From positions 620,001 through 684,000 of the forward strand of contig CP120458.1 of NCBI GenBank assembly GCA_034226945.1: a DNA stretch of 64,000 nucleotides, written 5' to 3'. A program made the translations under genes and the position numbers. The notes beneath the pieces are model-generated. The model was not told the origin of the DNA, made no database searches, and was given only the letters and a program-made list of their open reading frames with translations. Shown piece after piece: positions 10,452-64,000 of this stretch; the first letter of the stretch is position 1; every line of letters starts with the position of its first letter. This DNA comes from Picochlorum sp. SENEW3. Taxonomy: Eukaryota.

Positions 10452-11546
10452 TTCATTTCACTTCAATATCTGTTGATTTGCAATATCTTGACAGGCTCAG
10501 ACCGTAGATGACAGACCAGCAAATTTGTTTTTAAAACATAATATGCGCATTTGAATGCGCAAAAGCCCCCGCACTTCGTAGGTGCCATGTGCTGCGGCAT
10601 TCCCGCTTATAAGCGGGATCACCGCCGTATTCACTTACAGAAAATGTGGAAACCCCCTTGATTTTGGGTCGCTGATTTCGTCGCGCACAGGGCGTTATAT
10701 ATTCCCGCTCGTATATATTATTGATCAGTGTTACAAATAGAGTATCTCGTGAGAATTTGAGGCGAAATGGCCCGCGCAATCGGGAGTTCGCCTCTCGGAG
10801 TGCGAGGCAGATGCGCTTGAAAACGGACGTCCAAAAGTTGTGCTATCGGCGAGAATACGGGGTTCCCACGACGAATTGTGAAATAATAATTATATATGCA
10901 ACTTTTTGAACACGCGGGAGCGATTGAAACGGCCCCAGGAGGTAGGAGCGAGTGTGGATCAAAACAACCTTGTAAGAGGCTGGTCGGCAATTTCGGAAAA
11001 TTTTCGCAGCCGGATTGTACTTAATATATCTAATTACAACAGATCGTTGCTCGCCCCCTCCGGGGCTGCTCGATTTTTTTATATTTTTTACACGACACTT
11101 TACAATTCGATTTATTCACTGCTTTTTCCCCAATGATCACCCCTTGTTGTGCCACTGTAGGCACTGGGGCGACCATTGGGGAAAAACCGTTAACCGTCTG
11201 TTGCCAGACGGCGAGTCCTCTCCATTCCACGTCTATTCACACCTGCACCACACATAATTGTCAGTTCTTACCTTTATTAATTGTTTGGCGACGTGATTGG
11301 AGGGACTCTATACCTGCAGGCACATATACAAGGGTGGTCGTTAGTGATGGAATGTCGTTGGTCACGCTGCGAGCGAGTCGCTCTGCTACGAATTTGGAAC
11401 TTACATGAGAGTACATTGTTCATTTATTGATATTGTATCATTCTGAGGCTGTATGGTCAGTGCTAAATATTCACTTGGAAAAAACTATACCCGTCCAACC
11501 CAACCGCCCGGCTCTCTTGTGCATCTCCAGGGTGCTATGATGTGGG

Positions 11547-21377: not shown

Positions 21378-24300
21378 ATGGGCGACCAGGACTCTCCACC
21401 ACTGTGGACTCAGGAGCAGGGCAGAGTGCTTCAAGGTCTAGATATCATACCCTTTGATCCACAGAAATGTGAAAAGGACTTTTGGGACCTGCGCCGCGGG
21501 ACTGATGCCTTCGATCAGGCTCTCGGAGCACGGGTTGAGGCAGGGAAGCTGTATGAGATATCTGGGGAGCGATATTACACGTCCTTGAGGAGACAGGGAC
21601 GACTGCGTCTTCCAATTCAGACCTTTAACGATGCCAATATCATCTACTTGAAAAGAATATGCTATGCGTTTGGCGGCGAAGACATACCGCGCGACGAAGA
21701 CCTGCGCGAATATCTGGTCTTCAATAACGGGTTCTGGCCGCTGCGTACCAGGCCATATATTGTCGCGTGCCCATCTGCTTTATCGCTGCCTTCCAGTGTG
21801 ATTTCGTTTCCTTGTATATTGAATATATACGAGGTTGATGAGCCCGCAACCATGCCGAAGTCAGTGCCCAAGTATGCCAAGGACTTGATGCAATTCCACC
21901 TGTTAGTGATGAAGCAAGATATGCCGAGCTTGTTGTTTGACGATGACGTTGCAGACCTTGTTGGGATGTGTATTTTCGTCCTCAAAGACCCTGACATGAA
22001 TACACTTGATCGAGGCGTACCTGTCTGTGAGTTCTTCCTTGTTTCTTTGAGCAAAGAAGAAGAGCAGGTTTTGAATCACACTGGCATCCAAGTTCTATCA
22101 GACCATTATATGCAGCATACGATTCCGAGTGATCGATGCAGTATTGAAATAGAATATTTAAATCCTGACAATTTGAACGAGTATCCCTGGCAGAGAAGAC
22201 CTATGCGTGAGGGTCGTCTTTCGTATGAATGTGGGCAAAGTGTCATTAGGAGGAAAGATGGTGTTTGGGGTATGATTCTACAAGAACGGGAACATATCGA
22301 CGCAGAGACGGGAGATCTCCACAGAGAATTCGGGATATCATGCGACAAAGACATTTTGAAAGAAGGAAAGCTGAAGCCTGGGCACAGATTGAAATATTAC
22401 CCCACATCCGAAATAATGGGAGTGTTTGCATGCCCGCCAGTGCGTTTTCCTATTCATCCAACAAAAATGGGGCAGCGAGTGGTGGTGTACGGTGCTGGTA
22501 ATTCCAACAAACTATCCATTCCAGACGGGTCTTGTGGTGTCGTGAATGCTGTCATCGAGGATGGTCCGAGAACCTCCTTGATGTGCACCGTGGCTGTGCA
22601 AGAAGAATATCCCAGCATATAGACAACACAGATTGACGTGAAATTAAAGTATACGAGATTTTTGTTGCTCGACAACGAACAGTATGTATCTCATCAATCT
22701 TCAGATTATGATAATGCGAACATTCCGCGCAGGATCATTTACAAATTCGAAAATCTGACCTTTTGCGAGATCAAAAAGCTGTTTGAGACAGCGCAGAAGA
22801 GCAGACTGGTTCACAAATGTAGCAAAGGTACGATCTCACGAACAACTTCAATTCGATGCCCTTGCTGATCTATCATCACCACTTTCGTCATCCAGGTAAC
22901 GAGAGTTTGGTGCCAGGTGACGATACCCTTGACATCTTGGAGCAGAAGAGGAAGGAAGCGGGGCATCAGGACTATGTGGCATGGTTGGCTTCTTGTGTCC
23001 ATTCCGACCCGTTCTTTGGCAAGACCTGCGAGCGTCGAGCCAATGAACGCTCCGAAACATATGTGGCATTGCAAAAGCCGACGGAGACCATTGCTGTACT
23101 GACTTGCTCAAGGGGACAGCAGAAAGCAGTGCCGGCAACAAGCAAGCAAGGAAAGAAAGTCAACTGTGAATACAGAACCCGCCTCACAAAGTTTCGATAC
23201 GAGGATGCCATCTACGCTGAGGCACTTCAGACCCACACAAATCACGAACCGGGTTCTGGAGATTATCACGAGCCTGAGACACCTCGACTGAAGAGGGCAT
23301 TGGATGACCTGTACGACCTTGGATTCAAACCTGCAAAGGCTGTCAACGTTATCAAGTATCAGACAGGTGCCACTCGGCATGATCTCACGGTTGAGGAACG
23401 ACATCTCTTGAATAAGACGATGGCAATTAGAGTCAAAAAAGCATACAACAAGCGACAGGCCTCCGGGAACGACCTGGATGCTTGCGAGGCTCTGTACAAT
23501 CAACACCGCGAACACTTTCTATACTTTGAGCGAGGCGACGATGTGCAGATCGCCATTTGCAGCCCAGAGCAAAGAAAGGTGATGAAAACCTGCCATACAA
23601 TGGTGTTCGCTGATGCTGTGCATTGCCTGAATCGAAAAGGTGATGTGACATTGGCTCTCCTGCTGCGAGATCCATATGGCATGGGCTTCCCAGTGGCCTA
23701 CTGCATATGCTCGGGGGGCGAGGATTCCACCAAATGGAAAAAATTCATCAGAGCCGTTGTAGATGCATGTGATGTACAGATCGATGACATCACCTTCATG
23801 ATTGACAAATCCACATGCTGCATCTCTGCTTTGGACCAGCTCAACTGCTTCTGGGTCCTGTGTGCTTTCCATTTCATGCAGAGCATCGGGCGCAAAATGA
23901 AAAGCCACGGCAGTGGCGTGTCTGGACGCAGTGATCGCGACAAATCCAACCGAAACACAATCTTCAGATATGTCAACAAGCTCAGGCTCGTCAAGGACGA
24001 GGGTGCCTTTGATTCTGTGGCGTATGAATTCATGACCTTCCTGGAGAATGAAATCTGGCCGAGATGAAGGAATATTTCATCAAAAATTGGATGACAATCA
24101 GCGATCGGTGGTCTCAATATGGAAGGAAACACATTGCCTTCTTGAAATCAAACACCAACAATCTGATTGAGCGGCTCTTCAGGACTGTCCAAGAAGAGTT
24201 CCTTGACAGGGAGAGACTGGGTCGCAGAGACAGCCTCATCCTAAAATTCCTCGACGAAGTAACACCACGATACCTTGATCGACTGCAGAAGCGATTACAA

Positions 24301-25306
24301 GGGGCCGAAAAGGCCAATGCGCGAGTGAACCAACACAAGCATTTGACAGGTGTGGACACGTGTGGCAGAACCATGCAGCCCTATTGTGCCACTGGCCAAG
24401 GGTCCCTCAGCGACTCGTGCCTCATCAAATTCAATGTGGATAATCAGATGTTCTACTGCTGTACCGGAGACCTCAGCTGCACTTGTGATGACAACGACGA
24501 CGACATTTGTATGCATGTCGAAGCTGCCATGAAAAAGTACCCCATCACCTACGAGATGGTGAGAAAGGTGGCGTCTGTCGTGAAAAGCCGCCAACACGAG
24601 TATGTCCAGAAGATGGCGACACCAGCTCCGTTTCATGGTGCAGAAGACCATCATGTGGAATTGTCCGATGTCGACATTGATGAGGACAACACGGTGTATC
24701 AATGCTTGCCGGTGTGCTTTTACCACCTGGGACCAAAACCACGCAGAAAGTACTTTGTCAACATGTACTACAAAACGTGCACGTGTCATTGCTTTTCCTT
24801 CTTCGGCACATGTCCACATGTCATAGCGTTAGGCGCTACGGATGAAGACGATATGGATCCTGCGGAGAAACTCCAGAAATCTGTCCAGATCAGGAACGAC
24901 ACTCATGTCAACGCGGAGTGGGAACGAGCCTTAGTTCAGGCCTTTCCCGCACCAAGCCATGGCTCAAGCCAGCTGCGACATCCTGACGCTTGGAAGACGG
25001 CAAATCACGGACCCTAGGATGCTGACCAAAATACAGTTCAACAACGACCAGAGAGTCGCAACCTCGATCCTCGACGAATTGCCCCGACATCTTGATGGCC
25101 GGTTCATGGAGCTCCATCAGACATTCATGCAGGGTATCCGACAATTGCAGGAGATTGGCATCAACGAGTGTCGGAACCAGAATACCAATTCAGCCCCTGC
25201 ATTCAATGCCAATATGGCCTACATCCCTCCTCAACCAAGCTGGCACAGGAACCCCAACCCCAGCACTTCTGTGGCGCAATACGAGGACATGGTGATTGAA
25301 GAATAA
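21378..25306 (+). pseudogene. Mutator (MULE) transposase with FAR1/WRKY-like Zn finger and two SWIM fingers; one in-frame stop and ~3 frameshifts
   Basis: FADAVH, GMGFPVAY, FMIDK, CAFH, TNNLIER; SWIM CTC..CMH and CTC..CPH. 21378 and 22638 ORFs share a frame across TAG 22620; frameshifts near 22860, 24062 and 24970. Inclusion of the 21378 ORF is inferred. Confidence 0.8.
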
Positions 25307-25545: not shown

Positions 25546-25575
25546 GGGTCTTAAATAAGGCCTCTTCTCTGTATG
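25546..25575 (-). mobile_element. Solo 'left' end of the 212-bp family, just downstream of the MULE gene
   Basis: gggtcttaaataaggcctcttctctgtatg is the exact reverse complement of the family terminus. Confidence 0.85.
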
Positions 25576-25887
25576 GACGGCTGGCCTCTTTGATGCTGTC
25601 CTGGCATGAATTCTCTCTCAATCGCCACTGATAGATCACTTGCCTGAGGACGGCTGAATTTCCCTTTACTATGATCTACATCGATCAAAACGAAGGATGC
25701 CTCTGACTGCTGAGTGTTCGTTCAACAGATGGTCCTAATCGGGCCCATCCTAACCACCATTCAGGTCTCACCGCTTTGTATGTCTAGAAATCATTCTTTC
25801 AGATATATATACGGCACATTGTCTTCTGAAACAGCGAGACGGCCAAGGTCGTTCGTGTCTCGCATCCATACAGGGGTGGGTTTAAGA

Positions 25888-26099
25888 CATACAGAGAAGA
25901 GGCCTTATTTAAGACCCCCTGAAATTTAGGGGGTTCCCATCAAATGGTCCAGGGACCGGGTAGGGTTGGGTAGGGGGCCGGGGGATTAGGGTATTAGGGT
26001 TAGAAAACATTTAGATTTTGGACCTTGTTTGGCCGGTCGGGTATTTTAGGCGACCGTGGATTTAGCTCGGGGTCTTAAACAAGACCTCTTCCATACCTC
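25888..26099 (+). mobile_element. 212-bp non-autonomous element, copy 2
   Basis: catacagagaagaggcc...gacctcttccatacctc; apparently identical to copy 1. Confidence 0.9.
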
Positions 26100-26915
26100 C
26101 AGCCGTCCTGCAGTACCAGGTAGTGACCCAAAGTTTGGGTCCTAAACCATGGGCTGAGACCAGGGTTGCAGAGTCAGTCAGGTGGCTAAGCAGCCCTGAA
26201 CGTGTCGACCACTAGAATCTGACGTATACAATGTAAATGCGAGCTCGCGAATATGCATCAAACAAAAAAGATGTCGCCACCATCGATCAAAGTACCCAAT
26301 TGGGCCGTTTGCCAAGTGGCACTGCCAATCGACTGGCTGCCACGATGACCATGGACCGCGAAGTCTCTACCCGATATAAGGCCACGTGACGGGCGGCAAT
26401 CCTAGTGTTCACACAGATATAACGCTGGAAAAAACCACTTTGGCGAATCACAAACTAGATAATTTGTACAAACTACCAAGTATGCCCAAACGGGCTAAAG
26501 CTCTCTGCATTCGACAAAACGGGTCCGTGTTGCTCGCGAAATTTGACCGAAATCGACGCCCAGGTCCCAGCCAGAGGGCATCGTGACCGGACACGCACGT
26601 CCTTTTCGACACGCCCCGAAATCGACTCTCGCAGCCCATCTAAGGCGCCTGATGAAGGCAACCTTCGACGAGAGACAACCACGCCCCGAATGGGCCGGGA
26701 AAATCACCTTTGTGAATATGGCGCAAAAGGCTCCGAAACACGCATTTTGTAAAATATTGTCCAGTACTGATGCTATTATCGGCGACTAGATGCTGACCAG
26801 ACAGGCATACACAGAGGTGGGTCTCAACTGCCATTGTCGCATTGCGCAACGAACGACCTTGGCTGTTTCACTGTTTCAGAGGGCGACGTGACATATGTAG
26901 TGTCTCTAATTTACG

Positions 26916-29900
26916 ATGACTCGAGGAAGAAGAGATCGAAAGCCGAACCTGCGGCTCCTTGGTGACGACTGGGACAACGACGAAGAAGGTGAGGAGCACG
27001 TGGCAACAGTCGACAGTGGCGATAAGCGCAAGTGCTCTTCGTTGGGATCGAAGGGGTGCCCAGTAATAAATCGAAGCCAGAGATATCGAAAGAGGAATAC
27101 GCGGATCTTCGGGGACGAGTGGGACAACAGCAACGAAGACGGTGGTGAACATGTGCCACCAGTCGACCTGGATGACAGGGACGTGTGCGCGGCTTGGTGG
27201 CCTGCGAGGCGTTCAGTCCTTCACCAAGTTGGCAGATGTGCATCAACCGGGAGAAAGCAGACAAAAAAGCCACTGACGTGCGTCGGAGAGATCGAGAAGC
27301 ACTTGGACGAGAATGCAGATCCAAACAAGCAAGGTCCCTCGGCCAGGCGAAGGGTCAAACGGAAACAAGTGGTGTTGAGTTCTGAGGACGAATGGTTGCC
27401 ACACGATGAAAGTCAGGAGACAATATTTGATGCAGAGGATGACAACATTCTGTTGCTGCCCGAAGAATGGACGAATGAAAACCACGCTGGGGGGATTGCT
27501 CTGTGTGACGCACTTGAGGGGGAATATCTGGATCACGGCAGGCGGTCACAACGCTGCCAATTGTGCGATGCCCCGCTATTTGAGTGGGAAGTGAAAAAGA
27601 AAAACGGGATGATCACAGGGGGACCCCTGTGCTGCCACGATGGGAAAGCCGCTTTCCTGTCTGATCATTTCGACAGGCCAGCTCCGCAGCCACTGAGGTC
27701 TCTGTGGGACGATCGCACGTCCCAAGAAGGCACGTGCTTCCACAAGAAAATTAGGTACATCAATGCGGCGCTGCAGATGGCATCGAGCACGTCCAACGTG
27801 GTGCACACGCCAGGTGTGAGCATGATGGTGGCGCAAGGCAGCATTTATCACCTCCTCAACCCCATCGAGACCTCCCAGGATCCTCAGTACGTGCAGATAT
27901 ACATGATGGACGACCAGGAGGAGGAACTGGCGTGCAGAATTAAAAAGATGAACGAGAGCAGTGATCCAGAGAGGCAGCACCCCGAAAGGAGGGAGGAGAC
28001 GGAAGCAGTGCGACGAATTGTGGGGGAGCTGCAGAGCATGCTGCACACATGCAATCCGTACGTGGAGCAATTCAAGTTGGTGGAGGAGCAGCTGCAAGAG
28101 CAAACCAAAGACGACGTGATGGAGTTCGAGGTGGACTTCATAGAGGCTGCCTCCAACGACCCTCACGTGTACAACAAGCCCCATGCGTCCGAGGTGATGG
28201 CGGTGGTGGATGACAGGGAGGGCCCCAAGGAGAAGCGCGGGCTGAGGCTGTTGGCGCGCAATCGCGTGGACTGCAAGAAGCCGGTGATCATCTGGGACAA
28301 CAGCCCGATGTACGAGCCCTTGCACTTTGTGCTGCTGTATCCCTGGGGCACGCCAGGGTGGCACACCGGCATGGGGCTGACCCCACTGCAGTACGGGGCC
28401 TACTGGCTCCACGACAGGGCTGGCGCTGCTGCAGACTTCGCCAAAGGCGGTCGACTGTTCCAGGAATGGGTGCTGGACACGTACGTCAAGGTGGAGAGGC
28501 AGAGACTGAACTACCTGAAGACGGACGAGTTTCGCCGAAAGATGCGCAGGAGCGCGCTGGGGCCGCTCCGGCAGGCGGTGGCGCATGGCAGGCGCAAGGG
28601 CTCGGAGGCGGGGATCGAAGCTGCCGAGGTGCCGGCCTCCCACATCGGATCGCGAGCGTACTTTCGAAAGAAGAGGTACGACGCGTACGCGCTGGCCCGC
28701 GCCTTCGGGAACCCGTCGCTGTTCATCACCATGACCTGCAACCCCAACTGGCCAGAGATTCAAAGGGAGATCAGGCGTGGCCAGGCCGCCCAAGACAGGC
28801 CAGACATCGTGTCTCGCGTCTTTCACGCCAAGCTGCGGCAGCTCAAGGATGACCTCATCAAGGGCAAGGTGTTCGGGGAGGCCAAGGCCCTCACATATCG
28901 GGTGGAGTACCAGAAGAGGGGCCTTCCGCACGTCCACATGCTGTTGTGGCTGGAGGACCAGGCCATCACGACCACAGGGGAAGGGATCGAGAAGGTGTCT
29001 CGAGCATGGATCCCAGATGAGAAGGTAGATCCACACGGGTATCATATGGTGGCCAGCCACATGATGCACGGCCCGTGCGACGGCAGGTGCTTGAGGGATG
29101 GCAGGTGTTGCAGAGACTTCCCGATGGAGTTCAGGGACGAGATGACGGTTCCGAACGGCAGCGCCCGTGGGGGGTACCCCATCTACCGCAGGCCAAACAA
29201 TACAAGAGTGGTGGAGAAGAAACTCGAGAAGGGAGCAATCGTGAAGCTCGACAACAGATATGTGGTTCCTTACAACATGTACCTGCTCAAGCGCTACAAC
29301 TGCCACCTGAACGTCATGTGGTGTGCTCTGGCATCGAGGGCATCAAGTACATGTTCAAGTACGTGTACAAGGAGGCATCTCGATCCAATGTGTCTCTTTC
29401 GGAGAGGAGGGAAGCGACGGTGGAGACGGTGGACAATTTCTTTGACGGCCTGTGCATTGGGTCTGCAGAGGCCTGCTGGAGGCTGTTTGGGTTCGAGCTG
29501 GCCGGGAACTACCCCAGCGTGCAGCAGCTCCATCTCCACACCCCGAACGACCAGAGCGTGCTTTTCGAAGAAGAAGGCAACTTGGTGGACGTTGTTCAGG
29601 AGGCGGGCTCGGCTGACACGATGCTGACGGCGTGGTTCAAGTTCAACTTGGAGGAGAAGCACAAGTACCAGGCCAGGCTGGCGGGGGCGGGCGAGGGGGC
29701 CACCGTTCGCAAGCCTGCCGCGTTGTCCACGTGCTATGCCGACATCGGCGCCATCGCTTCGTGGGATAGGAAGCTGAAGCGGTGGACGCGCCGCAAGCGG
29801 AACACTCGATGTGTTGGTCGACTGCCTTTTGTCCACCCGCAGGACAGGGAACGTTGGTGCTTGAAGCAATTGTTGTGTGCCCTGCCGGGGGCCACCTCCT

Positions 29901-31355
29901 GGGACGACCTGAAGACGGTGAGGAATACAGAGGAAGGGGGAAACCCGACCCAGGTTCCTGTACAAGACACTGCTCATGAAATTGAGGAAGCAGAGCCAAG
30001 AGGAGCGCGAGAGAGGCGAGCATCCCATTGCGGTGGCGATGGCCTCCAATGGGCTGCCAGCGCAGCTGCTACCGAACGGAACGACGGTGCACAGACGATT
30101 CAGGCTGCCCGTCAAGGACGACGTCGACGGCGAGCAGCTGATCTGCAACGTTGCCAGGCAGTCGCATGAGGCTGACCTGCTGCGCCGAGCGAGGCTGATT
30201 GTCTGGGACGAGGCCCCGGCGATGAACAAGTGGCAGCTCGATGTCGTGGATCGATGCCTTCGCGATCTCATGGCACGGCCCGACACGGTCATGGGCGGCA
30301 AGGTCGTGGTGCTTGGCGGGGATTTCAGGCAGTGTGGGCCTGTCATGAAGAATGCCAGAGGGCGAGCCAGGAGGGCAGCAGAGGTCAATGCGTCGCTGAC
30401 CCATTGGACCCACTGGCCTGCTGTCAAGGTCCTCAGGCTCCACATCAATATGAGAGTGGAAAACTGCGTGCGTCCTGAGTGCAAGTCGCGGCTGGAGGGG
30501 TGGAGCAGGTGGCTCAAGCGCGTCGGCGATGGCGAAGTGCCGCTGGATGACCACGGGCGCCTGGAAGTGCCCTCCTCCATCGCGTTCACCCCCGAGGAGG
30601 GGGATCCGGAGAGTATGGACAAGACCTTTTTCGAACATGTGTACGCTGGCCTCCAGGCCAAGCGCGGTCAGGACAGGGACGACTTCCTCAAGGGAACAGC
30701 CGTGTTGGTCCCCAAGAATGACACTGCCACCAGGATCAATGACAACCTGCTGGACGCCCTCATCGACGGTGAAGAAGACCGGCTGTTCGTGTCCATCAAT
30801 GGAATTACCGATGGTCGGCACCAGAGGGACGATGCATACCCGGAGGAGTATCTCGCCAGCATCAAGGAGAGTGGCCTGCCGCCACACGTCATCAGGCTCA
30901 AGGTTGGGGCCCCCATCATTGCCCTCCGCAACATCACCAAGGGCGTGTCCAATGGCACGCGAATGGTGGTGACCAAAATCCTCAACCACTCCATCAAAGC
31001 CAGGGTGGTCCACGGTCCCAGCACGGGGCGGGAGGTCCTCATCACCAGGGTGGTGATCACGCAGAGCCTGGGCTCCTTTGTGCTGCAGAGGACACAGCTC
31101 CCCATCCGCGTGGCGTTTGCGATGACCATCAACAAAGCACAGGGGCTCACGCTCCAGAGGGTGGGAGTGTACCTCCAGGACGATGTCTTTTCACACGGAC
31201 AGTTGTACGTGGCGTTGTCTCGGTGTGGAGATGACCAGAACCTGTGGGTGTTTGGGCCACAGCCGGACGACCAAGGAAAGCTGTGGATGAAGAACGTGGT
31301 GTACAAAGAGATTCTGATCGATACGTACCATCACGAGATTGCAGATCCAGTGTAA
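26916..31355 (+). mobile_element. Helitron RepHel gene (HUH Rep plus PIF1 helicase), disrupted
   Basis: FITMTCNPNWPEI, EYQKRGLPHVH (HUH), KYMFKYVYK (Y2), DEAP, GDFRQ, FAMTINKAQG, GQLYVALSR; frameshift ~29328; Walker A absent near 29950. Confidence 0.95.
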
Positions 31356-31479: not shown

Positions 31480-31519
31480 CTTCCCATGAAACCCCACGAG
31501 CCACGGGCAGACGGCCTAG
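31480..31519 (+). other. Candidate Helitron 3' terminus (...cacgggcagacggcCTAG|t)
   Basis: CTAG followed by T about 160 bp after the helicase stop, with an imperfect upstream hairpin; alternative CTAG at ~31624. Confidence 0.45.
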
Positions 31520-31836
31520 TAAAAACCAAAAAAAAAATAAAAAATTCATTTTCATGCAAGCAATGAAAAATAATAAATTTCGGCACAAAAATTTAGCATA
31601 CGTGCATCAAGCGAGGTATTTTCTAGCGATTTCTGCCCTGTATGTCGCGATATTCCTTTTTGCAGTCCACTGCAACACGACACGTGGACGACCGCGTGTA
31701 CTAACAAAGGTAATGCAGTATAATAATACATGAGACAGGTCGTTGTCAGCAGTGCATATGCGATGGCATGAATCGATGAACCTGAATCGTCCGTGTTTTC
31801 TTACAGGCTGTAAAACAAAATGAACAATGTGAGCGC

Positions 31837-33294
31837 TTGAAGATTCTCTGGGAAAGATTTGATGGGGTTTGTAGAGTCAATAGCCCAATATTTCGCTTTC
31901 TTGGATCCAGAGAAGAATGCCAAATAGCACGAATTCGAGATGAAGGGCATCAGAAGGTTGGAGTCCTGGTGATCAAAGACGTCTCACGCTGGATCCCAGC
32001 CATCATGAAGAATAAACGATACTGTGTTTTTCACTTTTTCGTTGATGACCAGGATATGTTACGATTTGAAAACCTCATGCTATTTCTCGTGGATCTGGAC
32101 TTCTCGCTAGTTGTTACCAGCCCAAACCACTCCGCCATTGATGCGCTGAACAATTTTCCGAATTCGAGATTCATGCTGCTTTCTGATTACCCCAAACAAG
32201 CACATATATTCACAAATGCTTCTCTTCTTCTCGGACATCTCTCCAGGGATCAGATCAGCGTACCACATTTGCTACTTGGACCAACTATTCACAAGGATAC
32301 AAACCCCCGCATGTCAAATGTGATTGTTCACAATCATAATGGTGATTTCTCGAGTTCTGCAATCATTATGGCATCAAAGAAAGACTTAGTCAGAGCGTCT
32401 TATTTGCATACTGTATCTAATCTGGAAAAAGGTATCTGGAACCAACTAAATGGTTCGCCCTCTTGGTTGGTAGGTGATGTACCAACTCGAGTAACCAGTG
32501 AGGAGTTTCATCCCACCATGAGGCCATGTATCCAGAAGAATGTTATTTTTGTTCATGAGAAACTTGATGTGAATTTGTTGGAAGGTGGAGATTTTCGAAT
32601 CATTTCGCTCGCAGTCAGGATAGCAAAACTGACTTGCCGAAAGCCAATATTCTCCCTGCGGGAGCTTCAGTCCTCTCCAAAAGCTGCGGAAGCATTCCTC
32701 CTTGACCATGGACTGAATTTGGACGTAGCAGGCTTGAAACTAGAAAAGATATTTCCAAGACCTTGTCAAAGCCCCAAGTTTGATCTGGCTATTGTGGGAG
32801 TTTGGTTTTGGAGAGAAGATTTGAAATCCAGTGCAGAATTAGCATTTGATTGGCAATCAAAGAATTGCATCGGAAAGTTGATTGGACTGACTGACGATAT
32901 ACATTGGATTCGAATGACTCAAGGTCTTCTAGTAAATGCCTTCTCGAATGTTTCAGTCCCAAGAGTTGCTTTTGAGACCATCTTGGAAACGAAGGAAGTG
33001 GAATTGAATATATACTCGAGATTGGACAGTATCTTGACGGTGAGCAAGGCCGATGCTCATAGTATTGGACATCTTGTCGAAAACGGCTATGAGAAATCTT
33101 GTCATGTCGGCCACGTGGAGGTCAGCCTTGCAAAGAACAAGGCCTTTCCCTCTCGAGATAATAATAGGAATTCGATATGCTTCTCCGGTAACCCTGCGCA
33201 GACAAGTGGAGGTATGGACAAGTGCTATTTTGACCCCGGAGATTCGAACCCTCTGCGGCCGAGCCTCCGCCACAATCTGTCACATAAATCGTGA
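31837..33294 (+). pseudogene. GT4-like glycosyltransferase, likely paralog of 9030-10451, C-terminally disrupted
   Basis: GGDFRI, WFW, TDDIHWIR and FSGN parallel GCDQRL, WFW, HDDAHFAR and FVGN in 9030-10451; similarity ends at the footprint at 33201. Confidence 0.65.
33201..33224 (-). mobile_element. Collapsed footprint of the 212-bp family: TSD-GAGGTATG-TSD
   Basis: gacaagtg GAGGTATG gacaagtg: exact 8-bp duplication around the fused termini. Confidence 0.8.
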
Positions 33295-33347
33295 TGGGAT
33301 CGGGTAGTCGCACTTACATCCACTCAAAATTTTTTCCATATGCAAGG

Positions 33348-35066
33348 ATGAAATTATTGCACAAGGCAGCCCTCACGGCTGTGTTGGTCCTGGCTTTCTT
33401 TACCGGTGCGTTTGGCCCTTCCTCGTGCCACTTTTAAAGGGTTACATCTCGATGCTCTTGTATCTCCGCGTGTTGTTCCTTTTTGTTTGATCCTCATAAT
33501 TTCCGTCATCAATATTTACAAGCCATCGCTTTCTTACACTGCAGGAGGCTCTCACGCACAATCTGCGTTCGACCTGTCGTCCGAGGTGGACTTTGAAGAG
33601 CTGCTAGGTACGTGGAGCTATCATCTCATATTGATTCCAGCAGTGACATGTACAAAAAATTTGTTAATCGACGAGATGCGAAGAATATGCATATCACTCA
33701 TCTCATGAAGAACAAATAAACTACGGTGGCTGTTGTTGTTGATACCGGCTGCCCTCTCTGTTTGTTTTCCACGATCACGTGTCATCGAGACGGAGTGAAT
33801 TTTCAAGCGTTGTGGAGGATGCGAGGTGGACGACTGATTCATGACGTAGGACCAACATGTGGTGGTAATTGTATTTGTGCAGATATCTCGACAACAATGA
33901 TGCAAGCACGGGCGACACGGGGATTGCTCCAAAATTATGGTGCACCACCAGTATCCGAAGAAGTGGAACAAGATGCAGAGCAAGTTGATGAGGCAATAAA
34001 CGACATTATTGGCTCACCTGATCCTGAGGACCCTGATCCTCAGCCAGCAGATGATGATGATGTGGTTGCAGCAGTCGAAGATGTGGTGGAGGCAATCAAC
34101 CAAGGGCTAATCCAGTTTGACGATATTCCAAATGTCGCAGCGACAGCAGTGGACAGTGAGATATCTTTCACTACAAGCGAAGAACTCGATGAAACCCAGG
34201 CAAAACAAGTGACAGCAACGATTGCCACCCAGGTTGCTAATTCTATCAATATTCCAGGAACAAATGTGCAAACAAGAACTACAGTGAACGGTAACGTCAT
34301 TACAGTCCAGGTATTTTTGGGTGAGGCACTACAGCGATTAATGGAATATTATGGAAGAATCTTGGCTGCACGAGCTAATGGCAATAGTACGCCTGCAGCT
34401 GGGCGCAGTCTCTTGCAAACAAGCTCGAGAAGTAGAACAGTATATGTTGTCATCGGAGAGGACAAGGCCCAAGTCGAACGTTACCAAAGGCAATTGGATA
34501 ACACATTGCGAAATCAGACCGCCATGACTGAGATTTCAAACCAAGTTGTGGAGGGGAGCACAGCAGAAGCTGAAATTATCACTCGCCCCCCACCACCTCC
34601 AGCCCCAGCACCACCACTTGTGTGCTCCTACAGTGGACACTTTACCATTTCTCCGCTGTACTCACCATGCAACAGGCATTTCATGGCATATGTGTATCCA
34701 AACTGCGCAAACACCAATGTCTATTTGCGCACCTCTCGCCAGCTGGGCAACAAGCCTCGCCGTGCTGTATGGCGTCTCTTGGGAGGATACTTGAATGGAA
34801 GATCTGTGTCGACGACAATCTCGGCGGTGGAGAGAAGAAGATGTCCAGCTCGCAATCTTCAGGATACGAGTGGACCCTCTATGCTGGTGGCAAATCCAGA
34901 GAAACAATGGACCATCACTCCAGCAGGAAATGGGGAAAATTGCGATCGAGTCAACATCTTTGCCGAGCATAAACAGGCGTACCTTCAGGTTCCTCGTTCA
35001 TGCAACTCATTTTCCTATGCCAGCAGCGACGGAGGGCGCCAGAGATTCCGCTTGAGGCAAGTTTAA
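33348..35066 (+). CDS. Secreted/cell-wall protein, 3 exons (introns 33406-33544 and 33608-33882)
   Basis: Signal peptide MKLLHKAALTAVLVLAFFTG; two phase-1 GT-AG introns restore the frame; RGLLQ/RSLLQ motifs, PPPPPAPAPP linker, Cys-rich C-terminal domain. Confidence 0.8.
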
Positions 35067-35391
35067 TTGATGCATCTTTACAGGGACTTCCTCTGTGACT
35101 CGATGCCTTAGGAAATGTTTGAAAATCTCTGGTTTTTTCCAGTACCTTTCTCAAGAAAAATACTCTTGTTTCAAATTACCGAAACATCTTTTTGAAAGAT
35201 TGACTCCCGTTTGGAGCAGTCTTCTCTCTCTGGGCATTACTATGCGCATTTGCTTTGCTGTCGTCTTCCCCTCTGTATGTAACTGAAAAAGTTGCCAACT
35301 CCTTCTGATTGTTCTAGATGATATGCATGCATGCTGACAATTTGCAAAGAGCAACACGGTGCCCCAATACTGCCATGAGGATGCTACTATC

Positions 35392-36290
35392 AGAGACAAA
35401 ATCAAGCCTCCTTATGACATCCTTCCTCTGATGATGATGACGATGAGCAATGAAGAAGATCCAGTATCATCAAGATCATGCATGACAAGACATATGTTTT
35501 GTTCTAGAATCAGATCTGAGGATGACCAAATGACTCCATACAGAGAAGAGGCCTTATTCAAGACCCCCTGAAATTTAGGGATTTCCCATCAAATGGTCGG
35601 GGGACCGGGTAGGGTAGGGTAGGGGGCAGGGGGGTTAGGGTATTAGGGTTAGAAAATATGTAGATTTTGGACCGTGTTTGGCCGGTCGGGTATTTTAAGC
35701 GACCGGTGATTTAGCTCGGGGTCTTAAATAAGAGCTCTTCCATACCTCCCAAATGATGGACAAACAGCAGCAGCGGCAGCAAAACACTCTTCTTTTTCCT
35801 CTTGCTTCTGGGTCCTGATTCTACATCAATATACTTATAATATATTCGTCGTAGCCAATCCATCAACAATTGGGCATCGAGAGAGAAAAAGAGACATCAA
35901 TCGATGCGCATCGACGATGAATGCGGTTTTGGCGACAGGAGCCATCAAATCGACACTTCGTTGGCGATATTTTCTTATATTGTATCCCATGTATAATGAT
36001 GGATGATCAAAAAGGCCGGAAGAGAAGAGAAGAGAAAAAAAGGCTTGGAATGCATGCGAATCGAAGATGTGCGAGTTTTTCTTGATTTTGGTGGATTTTC
36101 TTTGGCTTTTTGGGTTTTTTAGAGAAATGATTGTTTCCTGTATAATGAGAGTGCTTAGGATGTGGGTTTGGAAGAGAGTTGAGGAATTGAGGATTTTGAT
36201 GGTGTCCTCTGAGGTGATTGCAATTTGCAACTATTGGGCATGACTTCAGAGGTATCCTGAATATATATGCAGTGGAAAGCTCCACTGTGT
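35392..36290. repeat. Dispersed intergenic repeat family, partial copy (interrupted by 212-bp copy 3)
   Basis: Aligns with ~52845-53520 and ~56545-57060; contains tcgatgcgcatcga. Confidence 0.85.
35537..35748 (+). mobile_element. 212-bp non-autonomous element, copy 3 (diverged)
   Basis: Same length and termini; TSD ccaaatga (35526-35533 and 35749-35756) plus extra ctc on the left; paralogous empty site near 52951. Confidence 0.9.
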
Positions 36291-44790: not shown

Positions 44791-45777
44791 CTATCCAGTC
44801 TCTTTGGCCACACAGACTTTATAACCATTTACTTGGTAACGGGATTCATGCATATTGCTAATACTTGAACACTTGATGGCTCCCATCTTTTGAACACTGT
44901 CGAAGAAAAAATGATGGAGAGATTCATGACTCAAGTAAAGCTTGTTGCAGAGCCACAAGAAAGGCTTGAGGCCTCCATTGCATTTATTGATAAAGGTGAA
45001 GAAACCATCCACCACTCCAAGCCATTCAGAATTTATAAAATCATCCAGAACAACAAATCCTTGCTTATGCAACACTGACTGGGCTAAAAACAGATCATTT
45101 AGTGTTGTTCCTCTTGTATGACCCCCGTCAACTGAAAAAATTCGATAAGATATGTCTGATATTGCTTTCAATCTCTTGGAGGTTATTGAATTGCTGTCTC
45201 CCTTTTCAACTTTGATGGATTCTCTTGGGAATCCAATACTTGATGCATGCTCCAAGAAAATTTGCAAAGATCCCTCACCGGAACCATCAACATTCAGATT
45301 CTGATCCTCGAATATATCAAATGCGACTGCATATTCCGGAGCAACGAGATTTGTTGCGAGCGAGAAGAAATACTTTCCATGATGAACTCCTATCTCCCCA
45401 ATTAAGCCTGACACACCAGCTTCAAGCTGTTGTTTGGAAAGATATTGGACCACTTGATGATGGATTGGGCACATCCATCCATCGACGAATTGTGAATGGT
45501 TCAAATATGATATCTCCAAGTCTGATTTTGGCAGTTTGGAAACAGTTTGTAAGGTAATTTGGTCCTGTAATAAACCATTTTGGAAGCGAGTATTGCACTC
45601 GTCTTCAGAGATGCCTCTCTCTCTATATATATATTTATATACTAATGATGTGCTTAATAGCAGTAGAGCATACAGGAGTCCAGGCAACGTATTATGCTTT
45701 CTGTAAGGTGGAAACAGCTGTTTTACTAGAAGAGTTGGGCCGCTTTGAGGAATATCGAATTTTGCAGCATTTCTCAT
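44791..45777 (-). CDS. Class I SAM-dependent methyltransferase (Methyltransf_24-like) with type-II TM
   Basis: GEIGVHHGK, FDIFE, GDS, SVDGGH and VVLDDF motifs. Confidence 0.85.
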   Translation of the reverse strand: MRNAAKFDIPQSGPTLLVKQLFPPYRKHNTLPGLLYALLLLSTSLVYKYIYRERGISEDECNTRFQNGLLQDQITLQTVSKLPKSDLEISYLNHSQFVDGWMCPIHHQVVQYLSKQQLEAGVSGLIGEIGVHHGKYFFSLATNLVAPEYAVAFDIFEDQNLNVDGSGEGSLQIFLEHASSIGFPRESIKVEKGDSNSITSKRLKAISDISYRIFSVDGGHTRGTTLNDLFLAQSVLHKQGFVVLDDFINSEWLGVVDGFFTFINKCNGGLKPFLWLCNKLYLSHESLHHFFFDSVQKMGAIKCSSISNMHESRYQVNGYKVCVAKETG

Positions 45778-45794
45778 TTTAAAAGTTTTGGAAG

Positions 45795-47140
45795 AATAAA
45801 CATTCTCGCGGGCCCCTTATTGACGCGAGTCTCATGACATTTGAATCGACGCATTGATGTTAACATCCAAACGTTTGGATGGAAATGACGGATGGACCGC
45901 CCTTTCAGTAGAACAGTAGGTTTGGGCAAGCCCTGAGTTGGAAACATGCATGTTTTGAAAATCCTGTGGTGAGACTGAAACCTTGTATGGTCCTTAGTAT
46001 GAATTTGTAAGCGTTCTGGGTTTCTTTGGCACCTGTTCGAAGTCACAGGATTCTTGAAATTCCATTGCACTAAAGCAGTATAGATCACTGGATCGACTGG
46101 CATTGCATAAATGCAGTGTTCGACACGCCCACAAAGCTTCATTTGCGATTTGCCATGGCCTGCTATCGATACGAATCTACCAAACTTGTGAATAGGCTGA
46201 GCAGATCTGCGTTTTCATTCTTGCAACCACATCCCCCTTTTGCAAAATATCTCCTTTAAGGATCTTAATAAGATCTGTAGGAGGGAAAGGCTTGGCTTGT
46301 AACTGCTTTCATGTTCAACATCAAACCTCGCTGCATCTACATTGATTCTGTCTAGAATCAGAATGCACGCCCATCGTAATGGCATGCTTGATCCTCATCA
46401 AGTACTTGACACTAGTGTCACAGCTCGAGAGAACCACATTTATTATACTGCTATGACGTTTGTATTGTTGCCCTTGTGTCAATACTGAGCAGCTATATCG
46501 ACCATCAATCCTCACGTTCACAATTTCATGTACATATGAGTTTTTGGCTAAGGCATCGCGCATCATGGCCACAACAGCACCGCACTGAGAGCCATGAAAA
46601 AGAAATATGGTAGCATGCAAGCATTTTAGCGGGCAGTAGCAGAAACGAGCATGCTATGAACCAACAGAAGTCCGAAGGTATACTCTGGTGATCAACAAGT
46701 GCATGATATGGCTGCGATACATTCGTACCACAGGAATTGAAGGAGATTCTGACGCCTCCACCTTCATAGGGAATTGGCATTCGAGTGTCGGCTGTTTGAT
46801 TTGTAGCGTAGTCGTAACTTTTCCATCTGAGATGTGACTTGGCTGCAGCCATGCAGCTGCATGAGCATTGCAGATAGCATCTGATTTAGTCTTCATGACA
46901 TTTCCGCATGGAAGTGTCACGATAGATGACATTCAGGAGCAAATATGCACCAAAATATGGCAGATTGCTGTAGACTATGCTTCCACCCGGGCGATGGAAC
47001 CTGGGGCAGTTAGCCTTGAGCAATGACAGCCTTGGCCCAAGATCAGGTGTCATGAATAGACGAAAGTCGCCTATAAACATGCCAATTTGACCGGACGGTT
47101 GGACACCCTCTATCTATGAATAACAGCATCCCATCACAGT
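45795..47140. repeat. Right arm of the inverted duplication (with internal indels)
   Basis: Reverse-complement similarity to 39703-41450. Confidence 0.9.
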
Positions 47141-47730: not shown

Positions 47731-47762
47731 TAGGGCCTTAAATAAGGCCACTTCTCTGTATG
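47731..47762 (-). mobile_element. Solo left end of the 212-bp family abutting the Helitron fragment
   Basis: tagggccttaaataaggccacttctctgtatg (2 substitutions relative to 25544-25575). Confidence 0.8.
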
Positions 47763-47927
47763 GACGACCTCGCGAGGTCTATGTATATATATACGTATAG
47801 GTCTACGTATATACGTAGAGGTATATACCTGAAACACCTTGGTGGTATCCCTTGTGTGGTAAGTTCCATCGCGACCGACAATTGTCGCATGTTGCAACAT
47901 TTGAGGGCATCCGCCCCATAGAAGATT

Positions 47928-49549: not shown

Positions 49550-52168
49550 TTACACAAATATTAGACGTCTTGCTAGATCATTCAAATTCTGAAAAACTTC
49601 ATCGAGTACTTGTATGGCTCTTGAGAATGAATACCTGCTCGCGATCTTCTCCAATCCATTGGAAGCAAATTGTCTAGCAAGATGGGGGTCTTTCCTCAGT
49701 TCTGAATAGGACCTGACGTATTCCTGAATCTCTTCCGCCAAGAAGTAATCAGTATCTGCACTCAGACCCATTCCTTCGAGTGCTATCCTACTGCCAATCA
49801 CAGGGACGCCGTGAAAGTATGCAGCAGCCACTTTCCCCTTGACTCCTGCTCCGGTTGATAGCGGTACAATGGCACACAGCACCTCTGCATATAATGAGGT
49901 CAGGTCATCATCTGTCATAAATCCATGGAATCGAATCCCCTTATGATGACTCAACTGCTTCAGCAAATCTTCTGGAGGCTGGTGCGATCCTACAATGTGC
50001 ATCACAAAATCTGAATGGTGTTCACGAATAGCATCAGTGACTAGAATTAGGTTTCTTACTGCAACTACATTTGGCACGTGCTGAAAACTTCCAACAAAGA
50101 TTCCTCCATGCCTCCGTTTTAAATATGAACTTTCATCTTGCAGAAGTTTCTGGCCCACAGAAATGGATTCATCAGGATATATGTTTGACACAATCTTCAT
50201 CTTTGATCCTGGCATCCCTTGCAGTTGCAACACGTAATCTTCCACATCACTCATAACAAGTGTCATCACCGACCTGGTAACAATGTCCAACTCACTCTGC
50301 AGTCTTTTATATACTTTAGTTACATTAGCAACCAAATCAGGAGTGACATGAGCCTCCATGTCAAGGTGTGCCATTGTTTTTTCAATGCACTCCTTCTTAC
50401 TGTCAAGATCTTTCCCTTCACCACACAGGGCCAGCCGGATGGCCTCTTCTGGCGATACATATCCTTCTTTGTTCTGCTGCAAAATCTCCCTCGACTCCCG
50501 AAGGAAATGCAAATCCACCGTGTCGTACACGATGGGCACACCTGCACAACACCTACCAATCATCCCAATGACATCCTCTGCCGTGTTTGGTCGGGCAATG
50601 AATATAGCCTTGTAGGGACACTTGGCCCTTCCACACAAAGCCTCTGTCTTATTAGGCTGCAATCGAATCCCGCGAGATCGAATGTATGCCACATCAGCTA
50701 GCCACTGCTGCGGAACGAAATAATGAATGGGAAGAAAGTCAACTTGGATATCAGAGTTTAAGAAGTACCGTAGGATTTCCCACATTCGCTGAGATCCGGA
50801 GTCATATGAGGGTGTAGGTATCACTTGATCTATCCATAAAATCAAATTTTTAATATATCTTTCCCTCGTCGCGAAGAATGGGGTTCCTTCTGGCATATGA
50901 TGCACCAGTGCATCCTTCCATTTCTCTTTAAATATTTGTCTGTTCTTGCTCATCAACAATCGCTTTTCCTTGGAATCTGCCCCAAATGTATTTCCTTCTT
51001 GATGATACACAACAGCAAATGGCTGGAGCACCACCCTCAATCCCACATTCCTCATAGCCATTGCTAAATCAGTATCCTCGTAATACCCACGGCCATAGAC
51101 CCTATCAAAGCCACCCAATTTCACAAAAACCTCCTTCTCCACAGCTATACAAGCAGCAGAAATGTAATCTACCTGATGTGCCATCAATAGCTGCTTTGGT
51201 ACCCGCGTATACCCTCGAAACGCATTCGCAGCCCCTGCCTGGTTGTAGATCACCCCACCAAACTCTTGAATATCCCTTTGCCCCAAAAATAGGGGACCTG
51301 CGATTCCAGCCTTTGGATATGTCACCAACGTATTAATCAGCGCGCCTACAGCACCATTACTGACCATCATATCATTATTCGCAAAAAGTAAAACACTTCC
51401 TCGTGCAATCTCTGCACCCTTGTTGCAGGAAAATGAATACCCTTCTGACACATCATTCCTCAAATATGTGTATCTAAAATCATACCAGGCGCTCATGTCC
51501 TTCAAACACGATTTGACAATAGATACATGCTCTAAGTAACTTTCATCATCCACCACAACGAATTCCATCTTGAACTTGACAGAATCCTGTGCAAGTTCAT
51601 GCACACTCTGGCACGTCATTTGCCCTTGATTATGAAATGGCATCACCACAGATATCAACGGATCGGCAGCTTGGTCATGATGATGATTCTTTTTGTTACG
51701 GTTTCCATCACGAATGACTGAGACATCCTTGCCTAGCTTGAGATTTTCCTTCAGGACAGAAAACTCAGTCTTCCCCAGACGATGATGCCATGGCACCACA
51801 TCAGACTTTCTCAAAGATCCATTGGCACAAACAGGTCCAAGAACCTTCATAATTGCCTGATCTTCGAAGCATCCACCCAGGAATGGCTGCTGTCGAAGCT
51901 TCTCATTCAAGCGGACAATGTCAGGATGACGTGCCCAATGTGGAGCAGGTTGTTTGGACAAATAAAGCAAGCGAATCAGAAAGGCGCTTGATCCTACTGT
52001 ACACAACCAAATCAAGCAAATAACATATTTAAGATGGAAATAATTCCTGAGAATGCATCGTGCATCATAGAGAACTCGAGTGATCTGTTTTCTTCGTTCT
52101 ATCCATCTTCGTCTCGACTGGCCAGTTCCATGGAAGATGGACCGCTTGCGGTTCTCATGATGGTACAT
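49550..52168 (-). CDS. GT2-GT4 fusion glycosyltransferase with type-II anchor
   Basis: ISVVMPFHN, VVDDES, LFANND, GGFD..YYEDTD, P.P..DSGS.R, YDTVDLHFLRE, VGSFQHVPN, GAGVKGK. Confidence 0.9.
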   Translation of the reverse strand: MYHHENRKRSIFHGTGQSRRRWIERRKQITRVLYDARCILRNYFHLKYVICLIWLCTVGSSAFLIRLLYLSKQPAPHWARHPDIVRLNEKLRQQPFLGGCFEDQAIMKVLGPVCANGSLRKSDVVPWHHRLGKTEFSVLKENLKLGKDVSVIRDGNRNKKNHHHDQAADPLISVVMPFHNQGQMTCQSVHELAQDSVKFKMEFVVVDDESYLEHVSIVKSCLKDMSAWYDFRYTYLRNDVSEGYSFSCNKGAEIARGSVLLFANNDMMVSNGAVGALINTLVTYPKAGIAGPLFLGQRDIQEFGGVIYNQAGAANAFRGYTRVPKQLLMAHQVDYISAACIAVEKEVFVKLGGFDRVYGRGYYEDTDLAMAMRNVGLRVVLQPFAVVYHQEGNTFGADSKEKRLLMSKNRQIFKEKWKDALVHHMPEGTPFFATRERYIKNLILWIDQVIPTPSYDSGSQRMWEILRYFLNSDIQVDFLPIHYFVPQQWLADVAYIRSRGIRLQPNKTEALCGRAKCPYKAIFIARPNTAEDVIGMIGRCCAGVPIVYDTVDLHFLRESREILQQNKEGYVSPEEAIRLALCGEGKDLDSKKECIEKTMAHLDMEAHVTPDLVANVTKVYKRLQSELDIVTRSVMTLVMSDVEDYVLQLQGMPGSKMKIVSNIYPDESISVGQKLLQDESSYLKRRHGGIFVGSFQHVPNVVAVRNLILVTDAIREHHSDFVMHIVGSHQPPEDLLKQLSHHKGIRFHGFMTDDDLTSLYAEVLCAIVPLSTGAGVKGKVAAAYFHGVPVIGSRIALEGMGLSADTDYFLAEEIQEYVRSYSELRKDPHLARQFASNGLEKIASRYSFSRAIQVLDEVFQNLNDLARRLIFV

Positions 52169-52246: not shown

Positions 52247-53590
52247 CAGTCTTACATGCCCGGTGGTGATGGTGATGCATACTGAAAGATGAGCACAATC
52301 CTCAAATTCGGATTGAGGGGCTCGATTCTCTTGAACGAGCCTTTACTCATCCCCACCACCATCACCTCGTTTAGGCCAAGATGTAGTAATTGATTGATTG
52401 CAAACAATTGACTCAAACCATTCTCAGTTCTCAGTGATGGAAGGGAAGAAGTGGAATCCACACGACGAGGCAAGCCTTGCTTTGGAGGCACTGGGAAAAT
52501 GTTGCCCAATGGCAGTGCCCATGAACCTCGATGGGCCATGCTTCTTCTTCGTATTCCAATAATCGCTGGGAGAATGTTGAATAATATTTGGCCGGTATAA
52601 TGGATGCTTCCTACAAGTTTTTCACCCTTGTTAGTGGTTTGAGGAACCAGCTGTTGTTGTTGGTATACTTGAAAGAGTAGTGGTGTCCTCTGGCTTGCCT
52701 TGCGGCATTTTGTATTCGTGTTGATATGGAGGAGGTTCTTGAGGGTTCGGGTATCTACCAGCCTGCCACGGGCATACACAATATTGGTACGCCATGAACT
52801 TTCTCTCTCTCTCAACCTCCAACTCTCTTTTTTTTGAGAAAGAGAGAGTCAAACCTCCTCCTATGTATGACATCCTTCGTATGACGATGATGATGATGAT
52901 GTTGATCATGAGCAATAGAGAAGAAGATCCAGAATCAACATCTTTGCTGTGTTCTGAGGACCAAATCAGCAGGCCAAAACAGCAACAGCAGGAGCAGCAA
53001 AACCAAAACAACAAAAACACTCTCCTTCCTTTCCCTTGTCTTTTCCAGCATCCTGATTCTACATCATGATATAGATAATGCATTGGCAATCGCCAATCCA
53101 TCAAAATTTGAGCATCGAGAGAAAACAAGAGCAATGAATCGATGCGCATCGACGATGAATGCGGTTTTGGCGACAGGAGACGCCGAATTCTCGATTTATT
53201 GGCGCTATTTTGTTATTTTTCATTTCATGTATAATAACGGATCATAAAAAAGGCCAGAAGAGACAAAAAGAGAAAAAAAGGCTTGGAATGCATGCGATTC
53301 GATGATCCGAGATTTTCTTCTTGATTTTGGTGGATTTTCTTTGATTTCTTCTTTTCTATTCAAAAAGAATGGTTCAATGGATACTAAGAATGCTTAGGAT
53401 GCGGGTTTGGAGGAGAGTTGAGGATTTTGATGGTGTCCTCTGAGCCTCAGAGTCTGAGGTGATTGCACTATTGGGTATCCACTGCAATATATCTGCGGTG
53501 GAAGCTCAAATGTCTTCTTTTTAAGATGCATGAACCTTTTGCGAATCAATCTTCAAAAGCGGCCAAGAGACTGATGATGATGTAATAGTA
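52247..53590. repeat. Dispersed repeat family, longest copy (~1.35 kb)
   Basis: Contains both the 38196-type and 35392-type segments; preceded by a T11 tract. Confidence 0.9.
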
Positions 53591-55396: not shown

Positions 55397-56070
55397 AAAG
55401 GTAGGCAGTTATTCAGCCAGTGCCAAAAAATGCAGAAAGTGAAAGTTTGTAAGACTTCTGGAAACGTTGGTCGATCAAAGATTGCTCACACAAATGCTTG
55501 ATACAGTCGCATATACAAGCGTAAGATTTCTCTGTTGATGTATATACACCTCGATGCACCCAGTGTGGTCTCAAAACGAAATAGTATTTAGTAGTGGATA
55601 CAGTGCCGATGTATGAAAGACGATTAGATTTTTCTATTGATGGATGGATGTACGCGCGAATTGTAAAACAAATACATAAAATATACGAATAGGCTACAAT
55701 TTGTCGCGGGATACAAAGACCTACTTGTTTTAGGTTTTCGTAGGTCTCAACGCATAAGCCCTCTGACAATCACATTGTCAGATGCAATCGATGGATGTGT
55801 CCGGTCGAGTAGTCACAACGTCCGTGGTGGTCTGCATACGGCCCAGCTGAGCCGTATACGGCGAGGTCATCCATCCAGGCATCCATGGCAACTGGATCAA
55901 GTAATAATAATTCAGTGCCCACTTCATTCATATCATCCACCCCGAATGTGGAAATGTATGTACTCCACTGGGACCCATGACAAGAAAAAAGATCTATTTT
56001 CTTTGGAAGACGTGGTATCATCATCATCATGGCATACGAACACACAAAAAACTCACACAATTTTCCATGA

Positions 56071-63938: not shown

Positions 63939-64000
63939 ATCATATTTGCTCTGGGAGTCCTTGATGAATCCGAAATCTCTATGAACAACGAAAACGCTCA

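Follow-up and report, generated by a model that had tools for sequence, protein, structure and literature searches.

The question that this locus raises is how 24 bp came to lie just beyond the last recognisable codons of a glycosyltransferase-like gene of Picochlorum sp. SENEW3, when those 24 bp consist of two copies of one octamer enclosing eight bases that are identical to the end of a transposable element found elsewhere in the same region. The analysis concerns a single window, a stretch of 64000 nucleotides (64 kb; contig CP120458.1, positions 620001 to 684000 of the forward strand), and all positions are given within it. At 33201-33224 the window reads GACAAGTG-GAGGTATG-GACAAGTG on the forward strand, exactly as the first-pass annotation had it, with the left copy of a target-site duplication at 33201-33208, a solo core of 8 nt at 33209-33216 and the right copy, identical to the left, at 33217-33224. 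The repeat is exactly 8 bp long, the bases immediately outside it being different on both sides (a vs g on the left, g vs c on the right). The core GAGGTATG coincides with the opening 8 nt of a 212-bp element and equivalently with its first 3 nt joined to its last 5 nt; the annotation had taken it for the residue of that element after a collapse between two copies of GTATG, and the element does indeed begin with GAGGTATG and end with GTATG. As in a transposon footprint or remnant, both copies of the duplication are kept around a few element-derived bases, and the 24 bp are very probably what is left of a small Mutator-type transposon that has collapsed to eight bases.

A chance origin of the 24-bp pattern is very unlikely. 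The annotation had proposed a search for the core between identical octamers, and in the 64-kb window the exact pattern (N8, GAGGTATG, the same N8) was found once and in none of 1000 dinucleotide-preserving shuffles, where 6e-5 to 1.1e-4 occurrences per window are expected analytically; the other outcome that such a search might have had, a second scar, did not appear anywhere in the window in a scan with 126 end-composites, the candidate at 63253 being a GAG-only match that is too short to have meaning. A generous look-elsewhere test, in which any of 115 composites of a left-end prefix and a right-end suffix, each of at least 6 nt, was accepted between perfect 8-bp flanking repeats, gave one or more matches in 3 of 300 shuffles. 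The window has four structures of the form N8-x8-N8 with any middle octamer, and the shuffles have on average 1.33 (sd 1.46, maximum 6); this architecture alone is not rare, and what is improbable is that the middle 8-mer should be identical to the element terminus. The core itself occurs seven times on the two strands where 1.58 occurrences would be expected; full elements account for three of these with their left ends and the scar for one, and the remaining three are isolated 8-mers that have no flanking repeats, so the core is also found outside the context of a scar.

The element was delimited by a BLAST search of the window with the copy at 2711-2923 as query, which returned three full copies and four fragments that comprise the right end only. 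The full copies lie at 2711-2922 on the plus strand and at 25888-26099 and 35537-35748 on the minus strand; the second is 100% identical to the first and the third about 92% (92-92.5%) identical to it, and the similarity among all three begins at GAGGTATG and stops at GTATG. The right-end fragments are at 59774-59715 (60 nt), 25546-25576 (31 nt), 47733-47763 (31 nt) and 2557-2571 (15 nt). The element's 23-bp inverted repeat, GAAGAGGYCTTRTTTAAGACCCC, is subterminal (positions 9-31 and 182-204); outside it the last 8 nt, which read GAGGTATG at the left end and TCTGTATG at the right, are not inverted and have a direct GTATG in common. Since the copies at 2711-2922 and 25888-26099 are identical over their 212 bp within unrelated flanks, the family would appear to have been mobile recently.

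Both the termini and the target-site duplication's 8-bp length, which the annotation had proposed, find support in the flanks of these copies. The copy at 35537-35748 is bounded by a perfect 8-bp duplication, TCATTTGG, at 35526-35533 and 35749-35756, with an extra GAG (35534-35536) between its right end and the duplication, and the copy at 2711-2922 lies between cGATGATG and gGATGATG, which match at 7 of 8 positions. The copy at 25888-26099 has GACGGCTG at its left end (26100-26107, minus strand) and nothing to match it at the right end; this octamer directly follows the 31-bp right-end terminus at about 25546-25576 on the plus strand (25576-25583), so that it abuts the left end of one copy and, inverted, the right-end fragment at 25575, 524 bp away. 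The right-end junction is not perfectly fixed, with a GAG added in one copy and a duplication that matches at 7/8 positions in a second, and the termini of the family are to that extent slightly less sharply defined than the collapse model assumes. Set beside these flanks, the scar gives independent and base-exact support for the ends of the element and for the duplication of 8 bp.

Some further details of these junctions are recorded here. A third copy of GACGGCTG is present at 25649, and a short, degenerate second right-end piece, CATACAGGGGTGGGTTTAAGA, at 25867-25887 abuts the full copy at 25888-26099; the layout of GACGGCTG is consistent with an inversion, about 312 bp long, between two inverted right ends of 31 bp, or with an aberrant transposition in which two ends were used. 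The GTATG of the right end is followed by GA in five of the six unrearranged ends and in the scar, the extra GAG is present where the duplication does not begin with GA (the copy at 35537) and all four duplications end in G, a pattern which, with four cases only, could reflect either a target preference or a ragged right terminus.

The 212-bp element fits a non-autonomous MITE of the Mutator (MULE) type, an assignment drawn from sequence features and from what lies beside one of its fragments. Two ORFs on the plus strand, a MULE transposase core at 22823-24064 (Pfam ZSWIM1-3_RNaseH-like, E=0.0015) and a SWIM zinc finger at 24052-25014 (Pfam SWIM, E=0.082), both scoring below the curated cutoffs, have as their nearest atlas neighbours clusters of MULE transposases (score 0.96, the ten best named matches all being of one family) and SWIM clusters (0.96) respectively. 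They lie 529 bp upstream of the fragment that carries the 31-bp right terminus of the element, a proximity to a shared terminus that would link the 212-bp element to Mutator. The fragment at 25546 is probably the right end of the MULE-like element upstream of it, and the ORFs at 22823-25014 are a candidate for the autonomous partner of the MITE; in this comparison the right 31 bp are shared, the Pfam matches are below cutoff and the MITE has no inversion in its outermost 8 nt. No left end of the larger element is present in the window. The two ORFs occupy two overlapping frames, a split that points to a frameshift or an intron.

The features of the termini can be set against what is described for the superfamily. 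MULEs produce target-site duplications of 8-10 bp (PMC5499845, in the sections cited here) and those of the scar and of the 212-bp copies are 8 bp; the terminal inverted repeats of rice Mutator elements start with GAG (PMC4423477, as given in its Table 1), as does the left end of the 212-bp element. It resembles MULEs and MULE-derived MITEs in its 8-bp duplication, its GAG left terminus, its MITE size and its non-autonomous nature, and it may also do so in that a candidate gene for a MULE and SWIM transposase adjoins the terminus that it shares. It differs in that typical MULEs are described as having long terminal inverted repeats (PMC5499845, same sections), whereas here the inverted repeat is 23 bp and subterminal and the outer 8 nt carry GTATG in direct orientation. 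A hAT MITE was also considered, for which only the 8-bp duplication fits: the consensus of hAT inverted repeats starts with CA in the table already mentioned (PMC4423477, Table 1), the termini here are GAG... and ...GTATG rather than CA/TA, and no hAT domain was detected among the 51 ORF translations scanned.

Other classes of insertion were rejected on the structure of the copies. Site-specific integration of the crypton type at GTATG would call for a GTATG-containing site in a region that is free of the insert, and none is held at the corresponding place by the diverged paralogous region at 52905-53030, which is without the 223-bp insert of the copy at 35537, the alignment containing indels and not being base-exact. 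An introner with a 5' splice site GAG|GTATGG does not agree with the observations that no duplication ends in AG, that splicing from the GT of the element could not restore the pre-insertion sequence and that no copy lies within a demonstrable coding exon.

As for how the scar was formed, we consider it likely that a 212-bp MULE-type element was inserted at this site and then deleted between its terminal GTATG(GA) repeats. Insertion would have duplicated the 8-bp target GACAAGTG, and the filled site, at which a full element would presumably once have been resident, would read GACAAGTG-GAGGTATGGAAG...CTGTATG-GACAAGTG. As the left end is GAG-GTATGGA and the duplication starts with GA, the terminal repeat is at this site effectively GTATGGA (7 nt), and a deletion between these 7-nt direct repeats would leave exactly the 24 bp observed, the net effect being an insertion of 16 bp relative to the pre-insertion sequence. 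The repair route would most likely have been that of a double-strand break at the resident copy: the element may have been excised and gap repair from the sister copy aborted, with annealing at the first available microhomology, or replication may have slipped between the repeats, two routes that would give the same product and are not separable. Internal deletions of DNA transposons at microhomologies of 6-8 bp, through abortive gap repair and microhomology-mediated end joining (MMEJ), are documented, and are cited for Mutator too (PMC3814204, in the sections cited here).

There are observations that count against this reading. In the relevant sections of PMC5499845 more than 90% of MULE excisions in yeast are precise and the transposase is described as cutting cleanly at the ends of the element, leaving hairpins on the flanking DNA, so that excision would not typically produce a scar in which element bases are retained. 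Furthermore there is a single scar in the 64 kb, and the closeness of the scar to the point at which the neighbouring gene is truncated (within 19 nt) is left as a coincidence.

Comparison with known systems places the scar between several of them. The annotation had likened it to a solo LTR, and in structure the analogy is apt, for both derive from the collapse of a terminal direct repeat and both keep one repeat copy within a target duplication. A solo LTR results from homologous recombination between repeats that are hundreds of bp long. The mechanistic side of the analogy does not carry over, however: the repeat at the scar is of 5 nt, or 7 with the GA of the duplication, and offers a substrate for a microhomology-mediated process and not for homologous recombination, so scars of this kind are expected to form far more rarely per copy than solo LTRs do. 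Closer relatives may be the internal-deletion derivatives of DNA transposons, such as Gnome, Elf and Goblin, which derive from Ozma in Aedes by deletion between short direct repeats with the duplications left intact, the microhomologies being 6-8 nt there and 5-7 nt here (PMC3814204, same sections). Those derivatives are smaller mobile elements, whereas the scar is an immobile stub of 8 nt: because its repeats lie at the extreme termini, the deletion removes essentially the whole of the element. Hsia and Schnable are said to have described internal-deletion derivatives of MuDR in 1996. With classical excision footprints the scar shares two copies of the duplication, a few bases between them and a small insertion that can shift the frame, but MULE excisions, as noted, are mostly precise with cleanly cut ends (PMC5499845), and repair guided by the repeats accounts better than the chemistry of cleavage for the retention of a terminal block of 8 nt.

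The gene beside the scar needs to be described before the remaining explanations can be weighed. The ORF at 31837-33294 encodes P0001 (485 aa), whose close relatives are P0002 (620 aa, 76% identity) and P0003 (615 aa, 51%). None of the three gave a glycosyltransferase family match in Pfam at E<=5, the sole row for them being an unrelated PH_SPO71 match to P0001 (E=0.12). The description of the ORF as GT4-like in the first-pass annotation nevertheless holds transitively: a search of the whole library with P0002 gave 14 matches at E<=1e-3, P0003 included, and with P0003 left out 11 of the 13 remote homologues carry Glyco_trans_1_4; moreover P0002 aligns with the GT4 ORF of the window at 9033-10457 (E=7e-5), ICFSGDAHLYNEF being aligned to the start of that domain. 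In the ORF at 31837-33294 the C-terminal GT4 domain itself is not detectable, the copy ending before the region that aligns with it.

This copy is a pseudogene, at 31776-33192 on the plus strand, with a frameshift near its start and without the whole of the C-terminal Glyco_trans_1_4 domain. An ATG-AAC-CTG at 31776 matches the MNL start of the homologue and lies in a different frame from the long ORF, in whose own frame a TGA stands at 31783-31785. By tblastn the similarity to P0002 and P0003 stops at 33192, the last shared residues, ICFSG, ending at 33189, and the two relatives extend about 155 residues past ICFSG, a stretch that contains the glycosyltransferase domain; with both as queries, these C-terminal residues were found nowhere in the 64 kb on either strand. 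The end of similarity is therefore 9-12 bp before the scar, and since only protein comparisons are possible the breakpoint is resolved to 33189-33208. That both copies of the duplication are intact indicates that the target was continuous at the time of insertion, and to judge from these comparisons it appears to have been already non-homologous to P0002 and P0003 when the element inserted.

The annotation had held that the 16 bp shift the frame of this ORF at the place where its similarity ends. The last 25 or so codons are indeed reframed, but the similarity has ended 9-12 bp earlier, and the reading frames past the scar show no resemblance to the homologues whether the 16 bp are kept or removed; the stop codon moves by only 13 bp, from 33292-33294 with the 16 bp to 33305-33307 without them. 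As the gene copy already had no catalytic C-terminal domain and carried a frameshift at its start, the scar is a passenger and not the cause of its death, and its consequence at this locus is nil. Self-BLAST of 33101-35600 revealed no repeats 3' of the break before the MITE at 35537. Capture of the glycosyltransferase fragment by the Helitron upstream was also considered and set aside, as the possible 3' end of that element (CTAG|T, near 31516-31520) would put the fragment outside it.

Three other explanations of the 24 bp have to be weighed against collapse between the terminal repeats. The scar might be a plain end-joining footprint of excision or of an abortive insertion, its 8 nt being simply left-terminal bases, in which case the GTATG of the right end would have had no role and the product would not be predictable. 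Such an account needs no contribution from the right end, as the scar does equal the first 8 nt of the left, and the excision sites that plant DNA transposons leave vary greatly, only 8 of 94 in rice consisting of the two duplication copies alone and the rest having deletions or filler (PMC4423477, in the sections cited here). We regard it as rather unlikely all the same, for the purified MULE transposase cuts at the ends and leaves hairpins on the flanks, so that element bases would not be expected to stay behind (PMC5499845, same sections), the junction falls exactly at a microhomology of 5-7 nt, which an unguided joint could have reached only by luck, and the scar has neither filler nor loss of duplication bases. 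An unrelated local 8-bp repeat, arising for example by slippage or duplication, that happens to enclose a terminus-identical 8-mer would be in keeping with the surplus of N8-x8-N8 structures and with the three cores that lie outside any element or scar; it seems extremely unlikely, given the joint expectation of about 1e-4 per window and the empty shuffles, an arrangement of A-B-A where a simple tandem duplication would give A-B-A-B, and a repeat length that is exactly the duplication length of the family.

The third explanation, put forward in the first-pass annotation, gives the locus a wider role: the terminal repeat would be a recurrent deletion route that seeds frameshift scars in surface-glycan genes, and this scar would have ended the similarity of the GT ORF. 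In its favour, the ORF concerned is a member of a divergent family of GT4-like genes, the 16 bp do alter the reading frame at its end, and the window is rich in glycosyltransferase genes, three of which are recognised by Pfam (a GT4 gene at 9033-10457, a GT2+GT4 fusion at 49553-52168 and a GT4+DUF5672 gene at 62295-63998). We think it highly improbable, as BLAST placed none of the three full copies and four end fragments within any of those three genes and the window holds no scar besides this one. For the locus at 33201-33224 a causal part of the scar in the ended similarity is already contradicted, since similarity stops short of the scar, removal of the 16 bp restores none of it, the C-terminal residues are absent throughout the window and the ORF has a frameshift in its start region as well.

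A more general form of the preferred reading is that GTATG(GA) makes every insertion of the element prone to collapse, so that many scars would exist in which GAGGTATG stands between duplicated octamers, each a fixed lesion of +16 bp. This extension of the collapse between terminal repeats we hold to be unlikely. If it were true, the element would act as a frameshift mutagen of the hit-and-run kind, with scars from which its former activity could be counted, and this in a green-algal lineage that is described as very poor in DNA transposons, which amount to only 0.35% in Picochlorum SENEW3 (PMC11092101); the sections of that description cited here make no mention of MITEs or Helitrons. Should scars prove common genome-wide, they would provide a count of past insertions since lost and would be a source of 16-bp frameshift alleles.

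Whatever the frequency of such scars, a literature search on Picochlorum and transposition brought up no description of the family of 212-bp elements. A scan of bacterial and archaeal genome contigs for its 23-nt inverted-repeat motif gave one exact match, in a Kiritimatiellae MAG contig (L001, 321-343), which was rejected as a copy of the element since its flanks are unrelated and it is a match by chance at the size of the collection.

Other genes and elements lie in the window around the scar. Two RepHel ORFs of a Helitron occupy 26910-31352 (Helitron_like_N 5.6e-51, PIF1 helicase 2.6e-40), a region of 55-60% GC in surroundings of about 45%. The next ORF after the pseudogene, at 33726-35066, encodes a conserved hypothetical protein that is 87% identical to a Picre1-tagged protein and 66% identical to one of Picochlorum sp. 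BPE23. The genomes of this group are compact and contain few transposons. Besides the glycosyltransferases there is a Methyltransf_24 gene at 44794-45816 and a weak match to a sulfotransferase at 58547-59290, and the glycan-related genes of the window are clustered with transposons interspersed among them. No tRNA or Rfam features were found in the window.

Several minor observations concern repeats. A dispersed family with 65-93% identity is represented at 35392-36202, 52845-53441, 56620-57062 and 60903-61017; one of its members hosts the MITE copy at 35537, and ORFs are not conserved between the members. Disruption of a paralogous ORF by that MITE copy was rejected, as BLASTP of the two ORFs gave no alignment. 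At 2520-2570 the reverse complement of the core, CATACCTC, stands 28 nt before the 15-nt right-end match ACTCTTCTCTGTATG and has no flanking repeat, a piece that could be either a decayed relative of the element or a product of chance. A CT-rich array with a period of 21-27 bp and 10 overlapping copies lies at 54742-55062, inside the minus-strand ORF 54335-55408. Finally, telomere-like runs of CCCTAA and CCCTA, in the form ctaaccctaataccctaatcccc...ccctaccc, occur inside the MITE, at 2790-2850 and at the corresponding place in the other copies.
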